Shown piece after piece: positions 35,019-57,269 of a stretch of 64,000 bases of DNA. Within the stretch, counting starts at the first letter, position 1. Each line of letters begins with the position of its first letter. A program made the position numbers and the translations under genes. The notes under the pieces are model-generated. The model was given only the letters and a program-made list of their open reading frames with translations. It was not told the DNA's origin and did not search any database. The DNA comes from Octopus vulgaris (taxonomy: Eukaryota). The stretch is from contig OX597816.1 of assembly GCA_951406725.2 (NCBI GenBank), positions 123,380,001 through 123,444,000 on the forward strand, read 5' to 3'.

Positions 35019-35162
35019 TATATATATGTGTGTGTGTACAGGCTATATTAAATCTCTGAGCAAGAGATAACCAGATTATTCAAGATCATTGACAGTTTGT
35101 TGCTGGAAAAAGCATATAGTATTTTGTGAGTGGAATGAGTTTCCATTACTAGCTGGTAATTA

Positions 35163-35209
35163 ACACATGCTGAGGACGGGTAACCACCCAGAAACTTGAG
35201 TCCATGTGT
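35163..35209 (+). ncRNA. Type I hammerhead ribozyme (retrozyme unit 1)
   Basis: acacatg-CTGAGGA-cggg-taacca-ccca-GAAAC-TTGA-GTC-catgtgt. Perfect 7-bp stem I, GUC cleavage triplet, near-palindromic stem III. Confidence 0.85.
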
Positions 35210-35518
35210 ATCATATAAGGCTAGAGATGGGAGCAATGACCTCCCCATGCAAATACTAATCGAACACAGAATTTGTGTCATTAGCCAGCTGGAAGAGATG
35301 TCTTACTGGAACTATAAACACCAGTAGCACCGTCCTGTATAGGACGCTACACTTGGTTGGCAATTACATGTTGCGATTCCGTGTTGCTACTGTTTATATC
35401 TTGCTCAAAGATTTAATATTGCTTATTTCCCCTTTTTCGAGATCAGTGACAGTTTGTCATTGGAAAAGGCATATAGTATTTTGCAAGTGAAATGAGTTTT
35501 CATCACTAGCTGGTGATT

Positions 35519-37451
35519 GTCTCTTGATGTGAGTTACGGCTTTTTATTTGCATTACTGAATTGTTGAATTACAGAATTGGTGATTTGATGTACAGTTGAA
35601 TTATTGAATTGTTGAATATTGTGTTGCATTTGTGAAATTGTTGAAGATTTTGTTTGGCTTCCCCATTTATGGATGAAGCAGTGAATGACAGAAATATGAA
35701 TTCATAGGTCCAGACAGGCAGTTATGTTGTGGGGACAGGCAAAAGCCTGACAACGGAGCTACTGCAGATACAGCAACTGGAAGTGAAAGACATAGACAAG
35801 AAATTTAATAACCTGTTGAAGAAGCAAAGAGGCTGCCTAAGACTGACACTCCCAAAGAAGTAGCAGAAGAATCGGAAAGAAAAATAATTACACTGAATAT
35901 AGGGACAAGAAAAGTAGAAATAGCAGGCGTTAAAGAGATAGAGGAATGTTTAAAGGAAGTAAAGGAAGTAACGACATTCTATAACAGAGTATGAAAGTTT
36001 CGAATGGTGGAGGTGTGCTTCGTTACTGAAAATGAAGCAAAGAAGTACTTACTCCACTGTAGTCTTGAAATCAGCATAGTGGGCACTCTTTTTTTGTTCC
36101 TTCTTGAGCCATGCCTGGCTCATAAGGGCCGGTTTCCTTGGCGTATAGGTTCCCCACCTGGACAGGACGCCGGTCCGTCGCAGGTGAGCTGCAAGATGCA
36201 GGAGGAAAGAGTGAGAGAAAGTTGTGGCAAAAGAGTCAGCAGAAGTTCACCATTACCTTCTGCCAGAGCCGCATGGAGCTTAGGTGTTTCGCTCATAAAC
36301 ACACACATCGCCTGGTCTGAGATTCGAACCCATGATCCCTTGACAGCGAGTGCGCTGCTCTAACCACTAGGCCATGTGCCTCCAGTGGGCACTCTTACCT
36401 ACTTACTGTGGCAGATGCACAGCCAAAGTAAGGATAGGGAGAATGCCACCCAAATTTAACGAGGACTATCTTGTGGCAGCCATCCTCTACAATACAGAGG
36501 AGAAAGCAGAGATACTGAAAATGTCAAAGACAGCGGAGGTCAACTGGTGGGGTTATGGCCTTGAAGTGGTGGTACATATCAGCCTACCTGACCTTCACAA
36601 AATTGTGGAAGAGATAATCCTACCCAACGAAACCAGATTGAGAATCATGTTGGAGGGTAGACCGCCAATAAGCTTCGAATGTGGAGTAAGGGGGCACATA
36701 AAGGCAAAGTGTTCCCAGAAACACGAACAGGAGGTGGTGGAGGAGGAGTGCCAGGAAGAAGTAAATGCAATAACAGAGAAAGAAGCAGAGTTCACTGAGG
36801 TAGAGAGGAGAGAAAATAGTGAATCCCCTCCAAAAAAGAAAAGAAAAGCAGAGAAAAAGGAAAAAAGAAAAAATGAAGAAATAGGAGATCGAACACAGGA
36901 ACCGGAGCCTTCAACAAGTAAGGAAGAGGAGGGACGGAAGGAACTGGAAGACGAGCAACAGAGCGAAATAGAAATGCCAGCACTAATGACAGAAAATGAA
37001 GAGAGAAGACCACCTAAAGGAAAACACGAAAGAGTGACGGCAGTGCATGAGAAAAGTGTAGAAATAGAAAAATGAATTGCAAGAATGAAAGGCGTAATAA
37101 GAGTGAGAATGGCAGAAGGAGGCGTAAAAGCAGTGTTGTTACAGGATGAAAGGGCAGCTAGACTGAGGGAGGTGTTTGGAAGTAGAGGGGAGAGCACACC
37201 GTTCCAATTTTGATCTGATAATTACCACCTCTGGTAGAATTTGAAGAGGTAATGACTTTTTGTTATAAATACAATATAAGATGAATTGTAAAAATGGTAA
37301 AATGGAACTTTCTTCTTTGGGGAGTAGGAAGCCATTTCATTACCATAATTTTTCATACCTCATAATTCATTTGTAAATCATTCTATGTACCCAACGTTTG
37401 TCCTTGTAATGTCCTTTCTATATAAGGTTTTATGCCTATAATAATGAGAAA
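35519..37451 (+). mobile_element. ORF1-only (half-LINE) Tx1/L1-like element
   Basis: Decayed ORF1 (MVEVCF...ALLPTYCGRCTAKVRI...RIMLEGRPPISFECGVRGHIKAKC zinc knuckle, then a K/E-rich tail), homologous to ORF1 of the neighbouring LINE. No ORF2. The 3' tail tgtccttgtaatgtcc resembles the LINE's 3' tail. Starts gtctc. Confidence 0.72.
36091..36384 (-). mobile_element. tRNA-derived SINE nested in ORF1
   Basis: TSD agtgggcactctt at 36078-36090 and 36384-36396; same family as 25234. Confidence 0.88.
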
Positions 37452-37462
37452 AGCTGATGATT

Positions 37463-40400
37463 GTCTCCACCTTTTTGATTGCCCTCATATGTGAATTCGT
37501 TTTGGGATTGTTTTATGTTATTTTACAAATTGCTGAATTGAGTTATTTTATAATTCGAACTGTTGTTACCTTGTTAACTGTAATTTTCGCCCTGCGGGGA
37601 GAAAATACTGTTTAAAAAGTATTTTGTTTGAGAAACTTCTGTGAAAAATTAATTTTTGCCCTGTCCTGGGCGTTGTTTTGTTTTTTTTTGCCATTATGGC
37701 AAATACTGAAAATATGAATATCAATTTGGATTCTCAAAAGGACTTCCCTGCTATGGGAAAAGAAAGTGATTCGTCTAAGGATAACAAAGTAAAAACCAGT
37801 TTTTTATTTGCTGCAGTCGGTGGGAAGGAAATAGGAATGATTTTTAAAATGGAACAACTGTTCAGTTACTGCAATATGGTGAAGCAAGTCGACGGTGAGA
37901 CCAAATTAATTCCGCTGCCAGAAACAGTGGTGGAAATAAATGCCAGAACTGTGATATATAAAATTTATAGTACAAAGGAAGAAAAAAATATGGAAGCGAA
38001 GAATGAGATAGTGGAGAGGTACTTGGCACCTATCTGGAACAAAATATGCTATGTTAGCTGAGGAATACGTAGTGCAACTGTGGAAGTACAGTTCCAGTCG
38101 GCCAACATAGCAAAAGAAGTAGCTACCAGAACACTGAAAAATGAGGAGATACTGCTGCTACCCACCTATCTGGGTCACTTGACGGCCAAAATTGTAGTGG
38201 AGGAAATACCTGTAGGCTACGAACTGTTGTGGGTAGCAACGGCAATTATATTCAATGCTGAGAATGAGGTAGACATCTTGCAGATGTTGAGAAAGGACAC
38301 CCAAAATTGGAAAGGTCAGACACTGCAGATGGTGGTACAACTAAACTTTGGAGAAGTTGCCCGATAGGATTTTGTAGGGGAGGGGCACATGATACGTGTG
38401 TCGGTGGAAGGACATAGGCCCAGATGCTTCAAATGTGGGCAGATCGTACTTAGATAGGGTATTCGTTAGACAAGATAGGAATACTTTTAGTCGTCCACAT
38501 TTTTTTGTTGTGCCTTACACGGATCACAAATTTGTGACGTGTGAGGTGCATCTAGATAAATGTCATAGACAGGGTCCTGGGTACGGAAGATGAACAAGTC
38601 TATCGTGACTTGTGAAGCCTTTTGTACCTGGATTAAGGAATTAGTACAGAGGGCATTATGTGGCACCATCATTAATAAAAGATGGTGGCATGCCCTCAAA
38701 AGAGCCATCCATTTAAAGTTCATTAGATTTAGCAAACAGCTAAGTTTAGATAGGACTAGAATAGAGGGTGAATTAGTTAAGAACCTAGACAAGGCTGTGG
38801 AATCTGGTTCTGCATCTGGAGTGCTAGCGGCGAGAGCGGTCTTGCATTGTCACCTCAATGCCAAACATGAAGGTTGCAGTCAGAGCTAAGCTACGTGCAG
38901 GAAACGAGAAGGTATCAACATTGCTGGATGGGCATGCCGAGTGGAGTGTCAGAGAGGTAAAAATGCCTCCATTAAGTCTTTAACTGATGAACAGGGGTGC
39001 AAGATCTATGGACAGGAGGAGATGCAGAAGGTCTTCTACCAGTATTTCACACGGTTGTTTGGGGAAAGTGGTCTGCTTGAGCACGGGGAAGTCTTAAAAA
39101 ACTTCCTAGCTGGTGGACCGCGACTTTCAGCAAGTGAGGTGGGGTGCTGTGAAGGACCAATCTCTCCCATAGAGGTTAAAGAGGTGTTAGCCGAGTCTGC
39201 CAGGGAAAGTCGCCAGAGCTGGATAGTCGGCCCTATGAGTTTTACCATAGTATGCCGGCTTTGTTCGAGGATATACTGGCCAGCGTCTATACAAACTGGC
39301 AACAGAATGGGAGAATTCCCACTGCGGTGAGCCAGGGAGTGGTGACGCTGATCCAGAAAGACCTAAGCAAGGGGGATAGTATTAGTAACTTCCGGCCCAT
39401 AACTCTACTTAATGTAGAGTTAAAAATTTTGGCCAATGTGCTGTCGTGGAGAAACTTGTCGGGAAAGCACAGACATGGGCAATACTCGGCAGGTCGATCC
39501 AGGACAATCTTCACCTTATCCGCTACACATTAGACAGGGTGGGTAAATTAGCCAGCAAAGGTGGAACAATGGTCCATTTAGACCATTTGATAGGGTTGAC
39601 CCTCAGTACCTGGTGGTGGTTCTTGAAGAGGCTGGTTTGGGCCCGGTCTTCCGTGGGTGGATCTCCACTATGTACAGAGGCATCAAGTCCACAGTCCAGA
39701 TAAACGGTTACCTGATGGAGCAAGGTGGCAAACAAGGTGGAGGCACTAGCCCTGACTTGGTCCGGAAGACCGCTGTCATTGAAAGGAAGGGTGGAGGTGG
39801 TGCAGGTGTTTATTGCATCAGTAATCACCTACCACCTGACCATTTTCCCTTGCCCCGATTCATGGATAAGCAAGTTGGAATGACTCCTTTTCTGCTTTTT
39901 GGGGAAGTGGGGGAAAGCCACTTGTGAGGCACCCCGTTTGCTGCCAGGAACCATTAAAGGGTGGGTTGGGGATGCCTTGGTTAATGATACACAGACATGT
40001 GTTGAGGCTGAGACATCTCTGGTGCCACCTGGAAGGTGATAAGGTGTGGAGCCTGCTGGCAGAGGGATTCTTCCCGCGACTGACCACTATGGTAAGATTT
40101 AAGCCCGGTTTTATAAAAAGACGAAATCTGATTGAATGGCAAAAGGAGTGCCGACAGGCACTCATGCTTATCCACAAGGCAGGCAAAGCCAGCAGTGGAA
40201 ATACTACCTCGAGGTTCTATAGAGGGCTGGTGGAGTTTAGAAATGATGTCGTCTTAGGAGGGGCTCTGGAGTTCGATGAGAACCAACCCGCCAACCTGTT
40301 TAGTAGGACTGTTAGACCGAGGTATTTGAATAATAAGCAAAAATCCCTGGCCTGACAGTGCTATAGAAATGCTCTACCTGTTCACATAAAGTTATCCAGG

Positions 40401-41074
40401 CATGAAGTTTCAGTGTCACCAACTTGCCCAAGATGCGTGCTGGACGACGAAACCGTCCAGCACGCTTTTGTACAATGTCGGGAGCTTTCGAGCTTGATGG
40501 TTTTCGTGGAACATGAGTTGTTGCATCTGGGAAGAGTATGGCTATCAGCTGGATCTATAATAAAGATGGTACCACCAGCCAGACTCTCAAAGGAAGGTGA
40601 GGCATGTTCTCTCTGTATGGTTGCAGTACTGAAAGAATGCATATGGAAACCAAGAATGGAAGGTGTCGCGACAGGATCCTTCATCTCTGACCCCGGTTTG
40701 CTAAATTACTTCAGGTACCATCTGAAGAGCAGGATGGGGCTGGAGAGGAAAACCCTGTCATGTAGGGTATATGAGCAAAGATGGAAGGATGTGATGAGAA
40801 AGGTGGATGTGAGTAACTCAGCTTAATCATTGATGAAAGGAAAATAGATAGTCGCTGGGCCTTACAGGCTGCCAGGTGAATCTGCCCAATTTCATTTTAA
40901 ATTTAAGTAAAAAAAAGGTGGTATCAAAAAGGAAAAAGAACAAAATCAGTTAATTGTAAATAAATGAATGTCATCTGTAAATATACTCATCTGAACTCAG
41001 ATATCATTTTTGTGTGTTTGTAATGTCCTGTAATGTCCCTCTCTGTGTTTGATTGTATAATCATAGTAAAAATA
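37463..41074 (+). mobile_element. Decayed, internally deleted Tx1/L1-clade LINE
   Basis: ORF1 (LLLPTYLG...VSVEGHRPRCFKCG) is fused to the APE endonuclease C-terminus (SYLDRVF...YTDHKFV...GPGY). RT segments include NFRPITLLNVELKILANVL, followed by GGLGMP and a C-terminal CPRC..DETVQHAFVQC zinc motif. A-rich end; 20-bp TSD at 35499-35518 / 41075-41094. Confidence 0.88.
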
Positions 41075-41095
41075 TTCATTACTAGGTGGTGATTA

Positions 41096-41142
41096 ACACA
41101 CGCTGAGGATGGGTAAACATCCAGAAACTCGAGACCATATGT
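41096..41142 (+). ncRNA. Type I hammerhead ribozyme (retrozyme unit 2), cleavage triplet mutated
   Basis: acacacg-CTGAGGA-tgggt-aaac-atcca-GAAAC-TCGA-GAC-catatgt; GUC has become GAC, so probably inactive. Confidence 0.7.
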
Positions 41143-41270: not shown

Positions 41271-41301
<31 letters not shown>

Positions 41302-54887: not shown

Positions 54888-54922
54888 GTTTCTGACGAAG
54901 AGCTCCACTTGAAACGTTAAGT
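54888..54922 (+). ncRNA. Minimal hammerhead motif within element 54780-55024
   Basis: gttt-CTGACGA-a-gagc-tcc-actt-GAAACGTT-aagt. Canonical core with partly decayed stems; same family as 13323-13357. Confidence 0.6.
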
Positions 54923-57269
54923 CCTCCTCCTTCTTTCTTTCCTTTCCTGGGCGTCCAATAACACTATACTTGTTCCACATCTTTGTGTTGTGTTTTTTCT
55001 TTGTTCGTGTTTGGATTAACTATACGTACGTACGTACATACATACATACATACATACATACATACATACATACATACGTTCATTCATTCATTCATTCATT
55101 CATTCATTCATTCATTCATTTCAAACTGGAGCTATGAAAACTATTTTAAATTTGAACAGTTTGAAAAATTTGTAAATTTTCTTTTAAAGTTTTTTGTCAT
55201 AAGTTTTTCAGGGTCAGCTATTTCATTCTTATTATATAAGGTTTCAGCAAAAGGAAAAAATAAACTGATTTTGATATAAATTTCTTGACTGTGTGTAATG
55301 CATGACTTCTGTAATTCCTAATATTTACTTCAATTAAACTATATGTGTATTGATGTTTTGTGTCCACGTAATTTCTTCCTTATGTGCACATGCATGCACA
55401 ACAAATTTCTTTGCACTCCTTTGTGCTCATGTATGTGAATGCATACGAGTGCGTAAATCTCAATCAAATGTCTGATCTTTCCATTAAAATTTTTTTACAG
55501 ACTCGATCAAACGTATTAATTATATTTCCACTCAAAATAGGTAGACATTAAAAACCAGAGCCACAAATATTCAAACATTAAGCAACTCCATATTCTTGAA
55601 AATATATATATATATATGTATGTATATATATATATATATATAGATAGATAGATTCATACATACATGCATTCATACATGCATATTGATGTATAGACAGATA
55701 TGCATATATGCGTCTATAGACAGAGAATGTGAAAAAGAGAGAGAGAGAGAGGAATTCTAAGAGTTTCTCCCTTGGCATAATTTAAGATTAAATTACAAGA
55801 AATAAGATGAAAGAAAAATAAATATATTAAAATGTAATTTAAATTAAATAACCATGTATCAAAAGAAATGGAAAACATTTCATTTTTTCAAAGTTACTTG
55901 TACACCAATATTTATGAATACATATATGTATATAGCACCTGTGGTACAAAGACCTTAGCATATGTCCGCATTATGGACCATATTACAATACAAAGCCTTC
56001 TTCTTGAAGTACAGCTCCTGTTTTAATCAAACTTCTACAAATATTAACTTACAGTTGAGATGCTGACTCTGCAATTAAAATATTCTCTGCTATTCTATAA
56101 TTAATGATTATATGCCACCAACCTCAAAGCTCATTCATTACACCAACCTCTTCATTCTCTGTGCTTCTCCACATTCTGAATTAAGCATTTTCTTTTGCCT
56201 TTCCCTCTATTAATCAATTCTTCAGGGTCATCACTGTAGAGTGATGATATACTCCTGGAAAGTTGTTTGTGATGCAGTATTGGTTCCCAGTTGAACTAAT
56301 TTGCAATTAACTTGCTAATTATTATTTTCTGAAGCATCAGTCTTTGGCAGTATGACAAGGCTCAAATTTTTTTCAGCCCATTCTTAGTTTTCCAATCAAT
56401 TTCTAACATACAAGGGAGCCTAAACGAACCATAAACCCCAATAATTCAGTTATTCCAGTGCCATCTAGATGTGAAAGGCCTTGGAAAGAAAATGAAACCC
56501 TTTTCATATTCAGACTAATGAATAAAACAAGTGTAAACATGAAAAAAGAAAGAAAAACTACATAGAAATATTGCTATTTTCTGCTACTGACAGGAAAAGT
56601 AATTCCTACTACTGAGTAAGAAAATCCATAAATGAAGTTGTCCAATCTAATGTAGGAATTTCCTATAAAATTAACTCATGCTATAAAAATTGGCAGTCTC
56701 TGCTATCCAAAATTCTAGCTGCTGACCAATAGCTTGTAGTGTGCTGAGAAATAAATTACATTTGTCACTTTTTTTTTTGTCATAATTATTTTGTGTCATA
56801 TAGTCTTGATGACAGGAATCAGTTAGCTGTGATGGTTCAGCAGCATATTAGCAATATATTTCTACATTAACTTGAATCCTGGAAAAGGAAGTCAAGAACC
56901 AGATTAACCATATTCAATAAGTTTAGCTTCTAGTATACCAGAGTTTTAAAAAAGCTTCGTAAACTTCTTTACCAGCTGAGACGAAATAATTAGAAGTTTG
57001 CACTCTCATTACCAAGCTGGCTTACAAATACAAAGTTGAAAGGATGAACTCTAACAGGCTACATCAATTATCAACACCAGTGCAGATTTAAACTTTGTGA
57101 GATCCTAAACCATATAAAGCTTAGATCTCTTGTTAAACCAGAGAGTCACACAAAAATTGAAAATATGCAGGCTTTTGATTATTTTGAGGCCCCTGTAGAT
57201 TTTGAAACATTACAATGCAGCTTGTCCTGCAGTGGCCAAAATCACTTTTTGCCCATAAGGACATATCAT

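Follow-up and report, generated by a model that had tools for sequence, protein, structure and literature searches.

Long interspersed nuclear elements (LINEs) that insert site-specifically by means of an endonuclease of the apurinic/apyrimidinic type (APE) are generally thought to pick their targets by sequence reading through that endonuclease. A close comparison for the elements treated here is offered by the target-specific Tx1 LINEs (Tx1, Keno, Kibi, Koshi, and Tx1-Mar). Their second open reading frame (ORF2) combines the APE with a reverse transcriptase (RT) and a zinc finger, ORF1 carries a zinc knuckle, and insertion is fixed in multicopy repeats, transposons, or U2 small nuclear RNA (snRNA) genes, with tandem stacking of copies (available parts of PMC4494074; also, PMC4640811). 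The criterion given for Tx1 elements is a multicopy target in >20% of the flanks (same parts of PMC4494074). An alike lineage is described here from Octopus vulgaris, starting from a stretch of 64,000 nucleotides (assembly GCA_951406725.2, contig OX597816.1, positions 123,380,001 to 123,444,000, forward strand), hereafter the window, in which two elements, A and B, interrupt a repeat carrying a hammerhead ribozyme. In contrast to the Tx1 LINEs named above, the octopus lineage inserts into hammerhead repeats, at the U2 5' end, and at TATA promoters, and its position seems tied to promoter geometry. The Keno insertion site is internal to U2.

The genome (2.8 Gb, 227 contigs) was surveyed for the 3' tails of these elements. 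For the B tail, a 23-nt pattern with at most two mismatches has nine matches. All five copies with zero or one mismatch end at one and the same base of a ~357-bp hammerhead repeat; two of them look like a single duplicated event, which probably leaves about four independent events. Of the other four matches, one adjoins another hammerhead family, two have flanks that are unrelated, and one is due to chance. A loose pattern for the tails of the whole lineage gave 259 matches (0 in the control), the first 100 of which were listed and fetched. A hammerhead unit adjoins 57 of these 100, 55 by profile and two by a loose motif (0/2000 and 33/2000 random pieces, respectively), and about six further listed tails were judged by eye to be tandem or decayed hammerhead cases. 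Three of the 100 are located at the U2 5' end. The hammerhead core is mostly found 29-32 nt from the tail, across strongly diverged repeat families.

Target-site duplications were accepted in 68 out of 119 copies that were fetched and in B of the window, which makes 69 sites; they are mostly 13-20 bp long among the non-tandem sites. Copies truncated at the 5' end and flanked by duplications are present, among them a B-tail copy with its own duplication (L155). Repeat sequence of the promoter side lies upstream at these duplicated sites, which shows that the copies are genuine insertions rather than transduced tails. The same observation counters the idea of hitchhiking, in which a few old insertions were copied along with the repeat, or the repeat is the LINE's own transduced tail. 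Duplicate loci do exist (L145/L148, L229-232, and L218-220), and three B loci are without a repeat flank on the 5' side, as hitchhiking would have it. However, the 5' truncations differ, many repeat families and several LINE clades are involved, and the flanks usually extend far beyond the cleavage site; the idea is largely refuted and very improbable.

Hammerhead-repeat targeting can, with hardly any doubt, be called established in this genome. The 57/100 listed lineage tails and the 5/5 B tails exceed 20% of flanks, and the A family falls below. A preliminary description, made from the window, had proposed this targeting and expected it of most copies of both elements. It stands for the B tails and the listed lineage tails, where duplications flank the element on either side, but it depends on the subfamily. 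Several points also count against the promoter-positioned insertion discussed below: about 40 of the 100 listed tails lie outside hammerhead repeats, some subfamilies look unselective (tail clusters 4, 5, and 9), and only 5/29 of the other A-family 3' matches end at a hammerhead repeat. The A-family copies in the repeat type of the window join at +7 (counted from the predicted transcription start, discussed below), the same offset as A itself, and, at three of the four other B loci, no upstream duplication was present in the stretch fetched.

Some of the occupied loci have an architecture of their own. At L158 (G000 C25:54000-63999), one hammerhead unit carries a stack of three A-family elements at its +7 site, and three copies occupy the 5' end of U2 genes, two of them in a tandem stack (L248-L250, G000 C3:20.81-20.83 Mb). 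At L132, U2 is joined ~20 nt inside the gene by a different tail, a second U2-targeted site. L009 shows a hammerhead unit with an unrelated tail, perhaps of a short interspersed nuclear element (SINE) or another LINE, ending AATAAAGAAATAT at the same predicted start. A reading frame resembling the RT of long terminal repeat (LTR) retrotransposons lies directly downstream of one lineage copy (L165:6438-7289).

The junction is probably the predicted transcription start of the hammerhead repeat, judging from sequence, because it lies 54-63 nt downstream of a box that U1 genes carry at -57 to -59. This box, ATCAG(T/C)(G/C), occurs at -63 to -54 in 30/30 hammerhead-repeat sites with an upstream flank (background 0.03), and 26 of these 30 also have a TATA-like box between -36 and -24. 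In the U1 genes, which form two sequence classes, the ATCAG box occupies -57 to -59 in 20/20. At the U2 insertion it stands 59 nt before the gene, and in the window unit 60 nt before the ATC. The box was not found in the U6 genes, of which the array carries a different upstream box, and no lineage tail was seen at 35 U1 and U6 loci. For a repeated sequence of another animal, newt satellite 2, an snRNA-type promoter is described (as cited in the available part of PMC2220036). The upstream snRNA-type promoter, rather than the upstream hammerhead, appears to be the more telling feature of the site.

The U6 array (L311-L315, G000 C1:139.42-139.43 Mb) consists of variant U6 genes in tandem, with an octamer, a TATA box, and the upstream box just mentioned. 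Other top U6 matches mostly look like promoterless retrocopies.

A midpoint-rooted tree of the 77/123 copies that keep enough of the ORF2 3' part places hammerhead targeting on all major branches, and a young nested clade has moved to other targets. The endonucleases of this derived clade and of the repeat-targeting clades around it are 95-96% identical. Outside hammerhead repeats and snRNA genes, 21 target families were counted, after removal of tandem junctions and of duplicates inside a family. In 12/21 of them (background 0.13, p = 2e-6), TATAWAW starts at -33 to -27, the textbook TATA position, with one mismatch allowed; exact matches occur in 7/21 (background 0.036). With related LINE-promoter families pooled and two microsatellite cases dropped, TATAWAW remains in 8/17 (p = 7e-4). 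In a later batch, four of the six families first seen there with both flanks had the TATA match, and L364 is a further TATA-like case at -29, read by eye. Identity among L404, L408, and L412 is ~99% over the whole copies and 99.6-99.7% for the endonuclease DNA, yet their targets are 33-38% alike, each with a TATA-like box at -30. Copies at the U2 site are >99% identical to hammerhead-repeat copies.

Among the derived-clade targets are the tandem 5' repeats of another LINE, presumably RTE-like, with an endonuclease ORF downstream. The 5' ends of related LINEs, without a TATA box, are also targeted, as are unassigned sequences, some of which have a splice-donor-like motif nearby. Thirteen further sites, seen in short windows, yielded no new independent target; most missed the 5' junction, and three of the tails came from another element. 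No C2H2 motif was found in the 12 loci scanned next to TATA targets. Two sites of dense insertion were recorded. At G000 C9:59209194-59251443 (L396, L397, L412, and L524), at least nine young copies of ~5.28 kb follow one another head-to-tail at a single site preceded by a CATAAAG box, and the array extends beyond the last listed match. At G000 C27:22.8-26.3 Mb and C2:14.65-14.73 Mb (L229-232, L365-367, and L518-523), many insertions use a common TAGTTCCCCTTG site, located behind a TATA-like box in clustered multicopy sequence; a splice-donor-like motif follows ~315 nt downstream.

These sites are best explained by promoter-positioned insertion without a long DNA recognition sequence, to which a probability of roughly 0.55 is given. 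Ordinary Tx1-type specificity offers a different account, in which the endonuclease reads a short degenerate motif or DNA shape, subfamilies drift, and the promoter boxes come along passively. Target choice of Tx1 elements is indeed ascribed to the endonuclease (available parts of PMC4494074), ATCG, ATCA, or ATCT opens most hammerhead-repeat duplications and U2, and subfamilies stay with their target classes on the tree. On the other hand, near-identical endonucleases are found in targets 33-38% alike, no column from +1 to +20 rises above ~0.3 bit among the 21 non-repeat families, and the TATA enrichment is not accounted for. This account is considered rather unlikely, while still deserving attention.

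It could also be that two mechanisms operate: the older subfamilies, including B, would be specific for repeat sequence, and only the young derived clade would use open TATA promoters. The TATA evidence does come mostly from the derived clade, the B junction sequence is near-constant (5/5 copies), and A joins at +7. Against such a division, the derived clade is nested in the repeat-targeting clades, with the endonuclease identity given above, and it keeps an equal geometry to the -30 box. Two separate mechanisms are judged improbable.

Promoter-positioned insertion has to be weighed against a number of less favorable observations. The interval from -33 to -27 was chosen following a first look, and 9/21 target families are without a TATA match. 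Matches to TATAWAW with one mismatch also occur on the minus strand in 10/21 families (exact in 1/21), because TATA boxes are near-palindromic. At four A-family sites outside hammerhead repeats, no TATA box was seen by eye at -30. The counts over the 30 hammerhead-repeat sites are not independent, since the sites are homologous. Finally, a short ATC-like motif is present at the junction in most hammerhead-repeat sites, and at U2 too, and the evidence for carry-over of host leaders at the 5' ends of copies is thin.

The lineage inserts in one orientation, with duplications of 13-20 bp, and its insertions lie ~25-28 nt upstream of the hammerhead core in many retrozyme-type families, likely at their transcription start. 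Under promoter-positioned insertion, the endonuclease nick would be set at -3 to +1, either through promoter-bound factors or through the open start region. A full-length copy would then have the host start ~17 nt ahead of it and could be transcribed from the host promoter. Its RNA, without a poly(A) tail, would read into the duplicated target, to be trimmed there by the downstream hammerhead at a point ~60 nt beyond the junction. The read-through tail might pair with the nicked strand, biasing each subfamily toward donor-like targets. Help from such RNA pairing is likely, and ribozyme trimming of the read-through RNA is plausible. Within micro-clades, the first 2-5 bases of the duplication are in common, which would fit tail pairing and, equally, a short endonuclease preference. 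The complete scheme can only be put forward tentatively, with somewhat less than even odds: an animal LINE tethered to snRNA-type and TATA starts would take its promoter and a 3' RNA trimmer from ribozyme repeats, inherit its target preference by tail pairing, and switch targets between near-identical enzymes without a protein change.

The lineage belongs to the L1 group (L1/Tx1) of non-LTR retrotransposons, as seen from its ORF1, the APE-RT-zinc-finger ORF2, the duplications, and the 5' truncation. L414, the sole copy among 42 full-length ones with both ORFs near-intact, has Exo_endo_phos, RVT_1, and zf-RVT domains in ORF2 and zf-CCHC in ORF1. Compared with solved structures, the ORF2 product of L163 is closest to human L1 ORF2p (E = 4e-53, against E = 2e-23 for R2). 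The closest named ORF2 homolog is a hypothetical protein of Argonauta hians (62% identity), and no labelled Tx1 reference was present among the homolog and atlas matches.

In the window, where all features below lie on the forward strand unless stated otherwise, the host sequence begins with the end of a previous repeat unit (35076-35161), which includes the empty target site at 35141-35161 and is 85% identical to 35433-35518. It is followed by a single ~357-bp unit of the non-LTR retrozyme type (35162-35518), with 2784 first-look candidates across the genome and copies in tandem. Its promoter would comprise a ATCAGTGAC box at 35442-35450, the predicted snRNA-type proximal element, 60 nt before the ATC at 35502; the same box is present in U1 genes and upstream of the U2 insertion. 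An AT-rich, TATA-like box at 35470-35479 lies ~30 nt before the predicted start, and this copy falls below the one-mismatch TATA cut. The 5' copy of the B duplication, TTCATCACTAGCTGGTGATT (35499-35518, 20 bp, predicted -3 to +17), is identical at 18/20 positions to the 3' copy, TTCATTACTAGGTGGTGATT (41075-41094), which forms the identical junction in the five B-tail copies.

The preliminary description had placed the two target copies, the partial target copy AGCTGATGATT (37452-37462), and the empty site correctly. It also took the two elements to have inserted at an identical nucleotide, each beginning with gtctc, an arrangement that the duplications do not bear out. A is flanked by AGCTG(G/A)TGATTGTCTC at 35508-35523 and 37452-37467, the 5' copy being AGCTGGTGATTGTCTC (16 bp, predicted +7 to +22, with gtctc within) and the 3' copy AGCTGATGATTGTCTC, alike at 15/16 positions. 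The gtctc thus belongs to the 16-bp duplication of A, the last five bases of which (37463-37467) are the first five of B. It follows that the insertions are staggered, with the 3' junction of A 9 nt downstream of that of B, and that A is nested in the 5' junction of B. B is the earlier of the two, because its duplication takes in bases lying upstream of A; A came later, and both elements are now dead.

Both had been described as Tx1/L1-like elements. B (37463-41074) is a decayed L1/Tx1-type LINE, with an ORF1 remnant at 37651-38442 and an ORF2 remnant at 38441-40823 (tblastn and blastn against full-length relatives). Deletions have removed ~0.4 kb of its RT and, separately, ~1.3 kb that held most of the endonuclease; a zf-RVT domain was found. 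A (35524-37451), on the contrary, belongs to a family of ~1.6 kb that is non-autonomous and has nothing but a broken ORF1: an ORF1 match at 36392-36721 (35% identity, E = 1e-19) and no ORF2 match were obtained, and the ends are ~1.6 kb apart in its relatives. Inside A, a SINE-like high-copy repeat of ~296 bp occupies 36089-36384 (no strand assigned); other copies are present in the window, the summed contig depth is ~1e6, and loose ends fall at 36093 and 36384. Contigs from three public runs span the repeat-A (one), A-B (two), and B-repeat (one) junctions, so the arrangement is not an assembly artefact. No A-less allele was seen among the junction joints listed from these contigs.

Hammerhead cores occur in the window at 35170 and 41103, and the pair of elements had been described as flanked by hammerheads on both sides. 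The upstream one, the type I hammerhead of unit 1 (35163-35209), is canonical, with stem I ACACATG/CATGTGT, the core CTGAGGA at 35170, GAAA at 35191, and GTC at 35200-35202. The downstream one (41096-41142) is degenerate: its cleavage triplet reads GAC and stem I pairs at 4/6 positions, so that it is probably dead. Its unit is truncated by (TA)n at 41271. A separate minimal hammerhead-like motif (CTGACGA...GAAAC...GTC) at 54892-54935 is unrelated to the LINE finding.

The host repeat, with a period of 357 bp, occurs as monomers and short arrays spread over many contigs, a dispersed short tandem repeat within the ~170-400 bp range of retrozymes. It resembles the non-LTR retrozymes in their ~350-bp units, type I hammerhead, and short palindromic stem III (available part of PMC7229834). 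Across repeat families, 39/59 flanks parse as a type I hammerhead with three stems, with GTC in 30; compensatory pairs are seen in stems I and II, and stem III is mostly palindromic. Rfam gave no hammerhead match at gathering scores, and the ribozyme fold was not recovered by single-strand folding. A second hammerhead repeat, on first view a candidate Penelope terminal repeat, has its box layout and inner blocks in common with the first family. None of 80 metagenome relatives, distant and mostly 24-33% identical, has a convincing hammerhead beside its 3' end. Short inverted copies of the unit's own 5' part often adjoin the unit (L002, L003, L022, L026, and L155). Such copies beside a unit are the expectation for Penelope-type insertion.

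Positioning relative to promoter-bound factors has precedents in TRE5-A of Dictyostelium and in yeast Ty3, both at genes of RNA polymerase III. The ORF1 protein of TRE5-A binds TBP, Brf1, and Bdp1 (available part of PMC5911963). TRE5 elements insert 44-54 bp upstream of tRNA genes and in the opposite orientation, whereas insertions of the octopus lineage fall on the predicted start of snRNA-type and TATA promoters and keep their orientation. A second likeness is to R1Bm and R2, which are co-transcribed with their target, a feature that is only proposed for the octopus lineage. R2 has its own 5' ribozyme; here, in contrast, the ribozyme is that of the host repeat, on the 3' side of the element. 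R1Bm and R2 also keep one conserved target, while the octopus lineage uses several target classes. For R1Bm, the downstream target sequence is needed for accurate reverse transcription (available part of PMC7265360).

LINE targeting of non-LTR retrozymes was not found in the available parts of PMC7229834 or of bioRxiv 10.64898/2026.07.22.740005, the latter without mention of Tx1 or octopus in those parts. No report of hammerhead-repeat targeting by LINEs was found in the literature, with Repbase and subscription papers outside the search. An octopus repeat annotation (PMC13282606) reports active L1-Tx1 families, and its main text, as far as available, is silent on ribozymes and targets.

Hammerhead repeats would be a new target class for LINEs, in which one selfish element settles on the promoter, and perhaps the ribozyme, of another. 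If promoter homing is true, each new copy could borrow a host promoter. Near-identical copies in unrelated targets with a common TATA spacing challenge the view that targets are chosen by endonuclease reading, and this can be tested with the near-intact L414. The insertion sites are, moreover, natural markers from which the transcription start and the snRNA-type promoter of an invertebrate retrozyme can be predicted.

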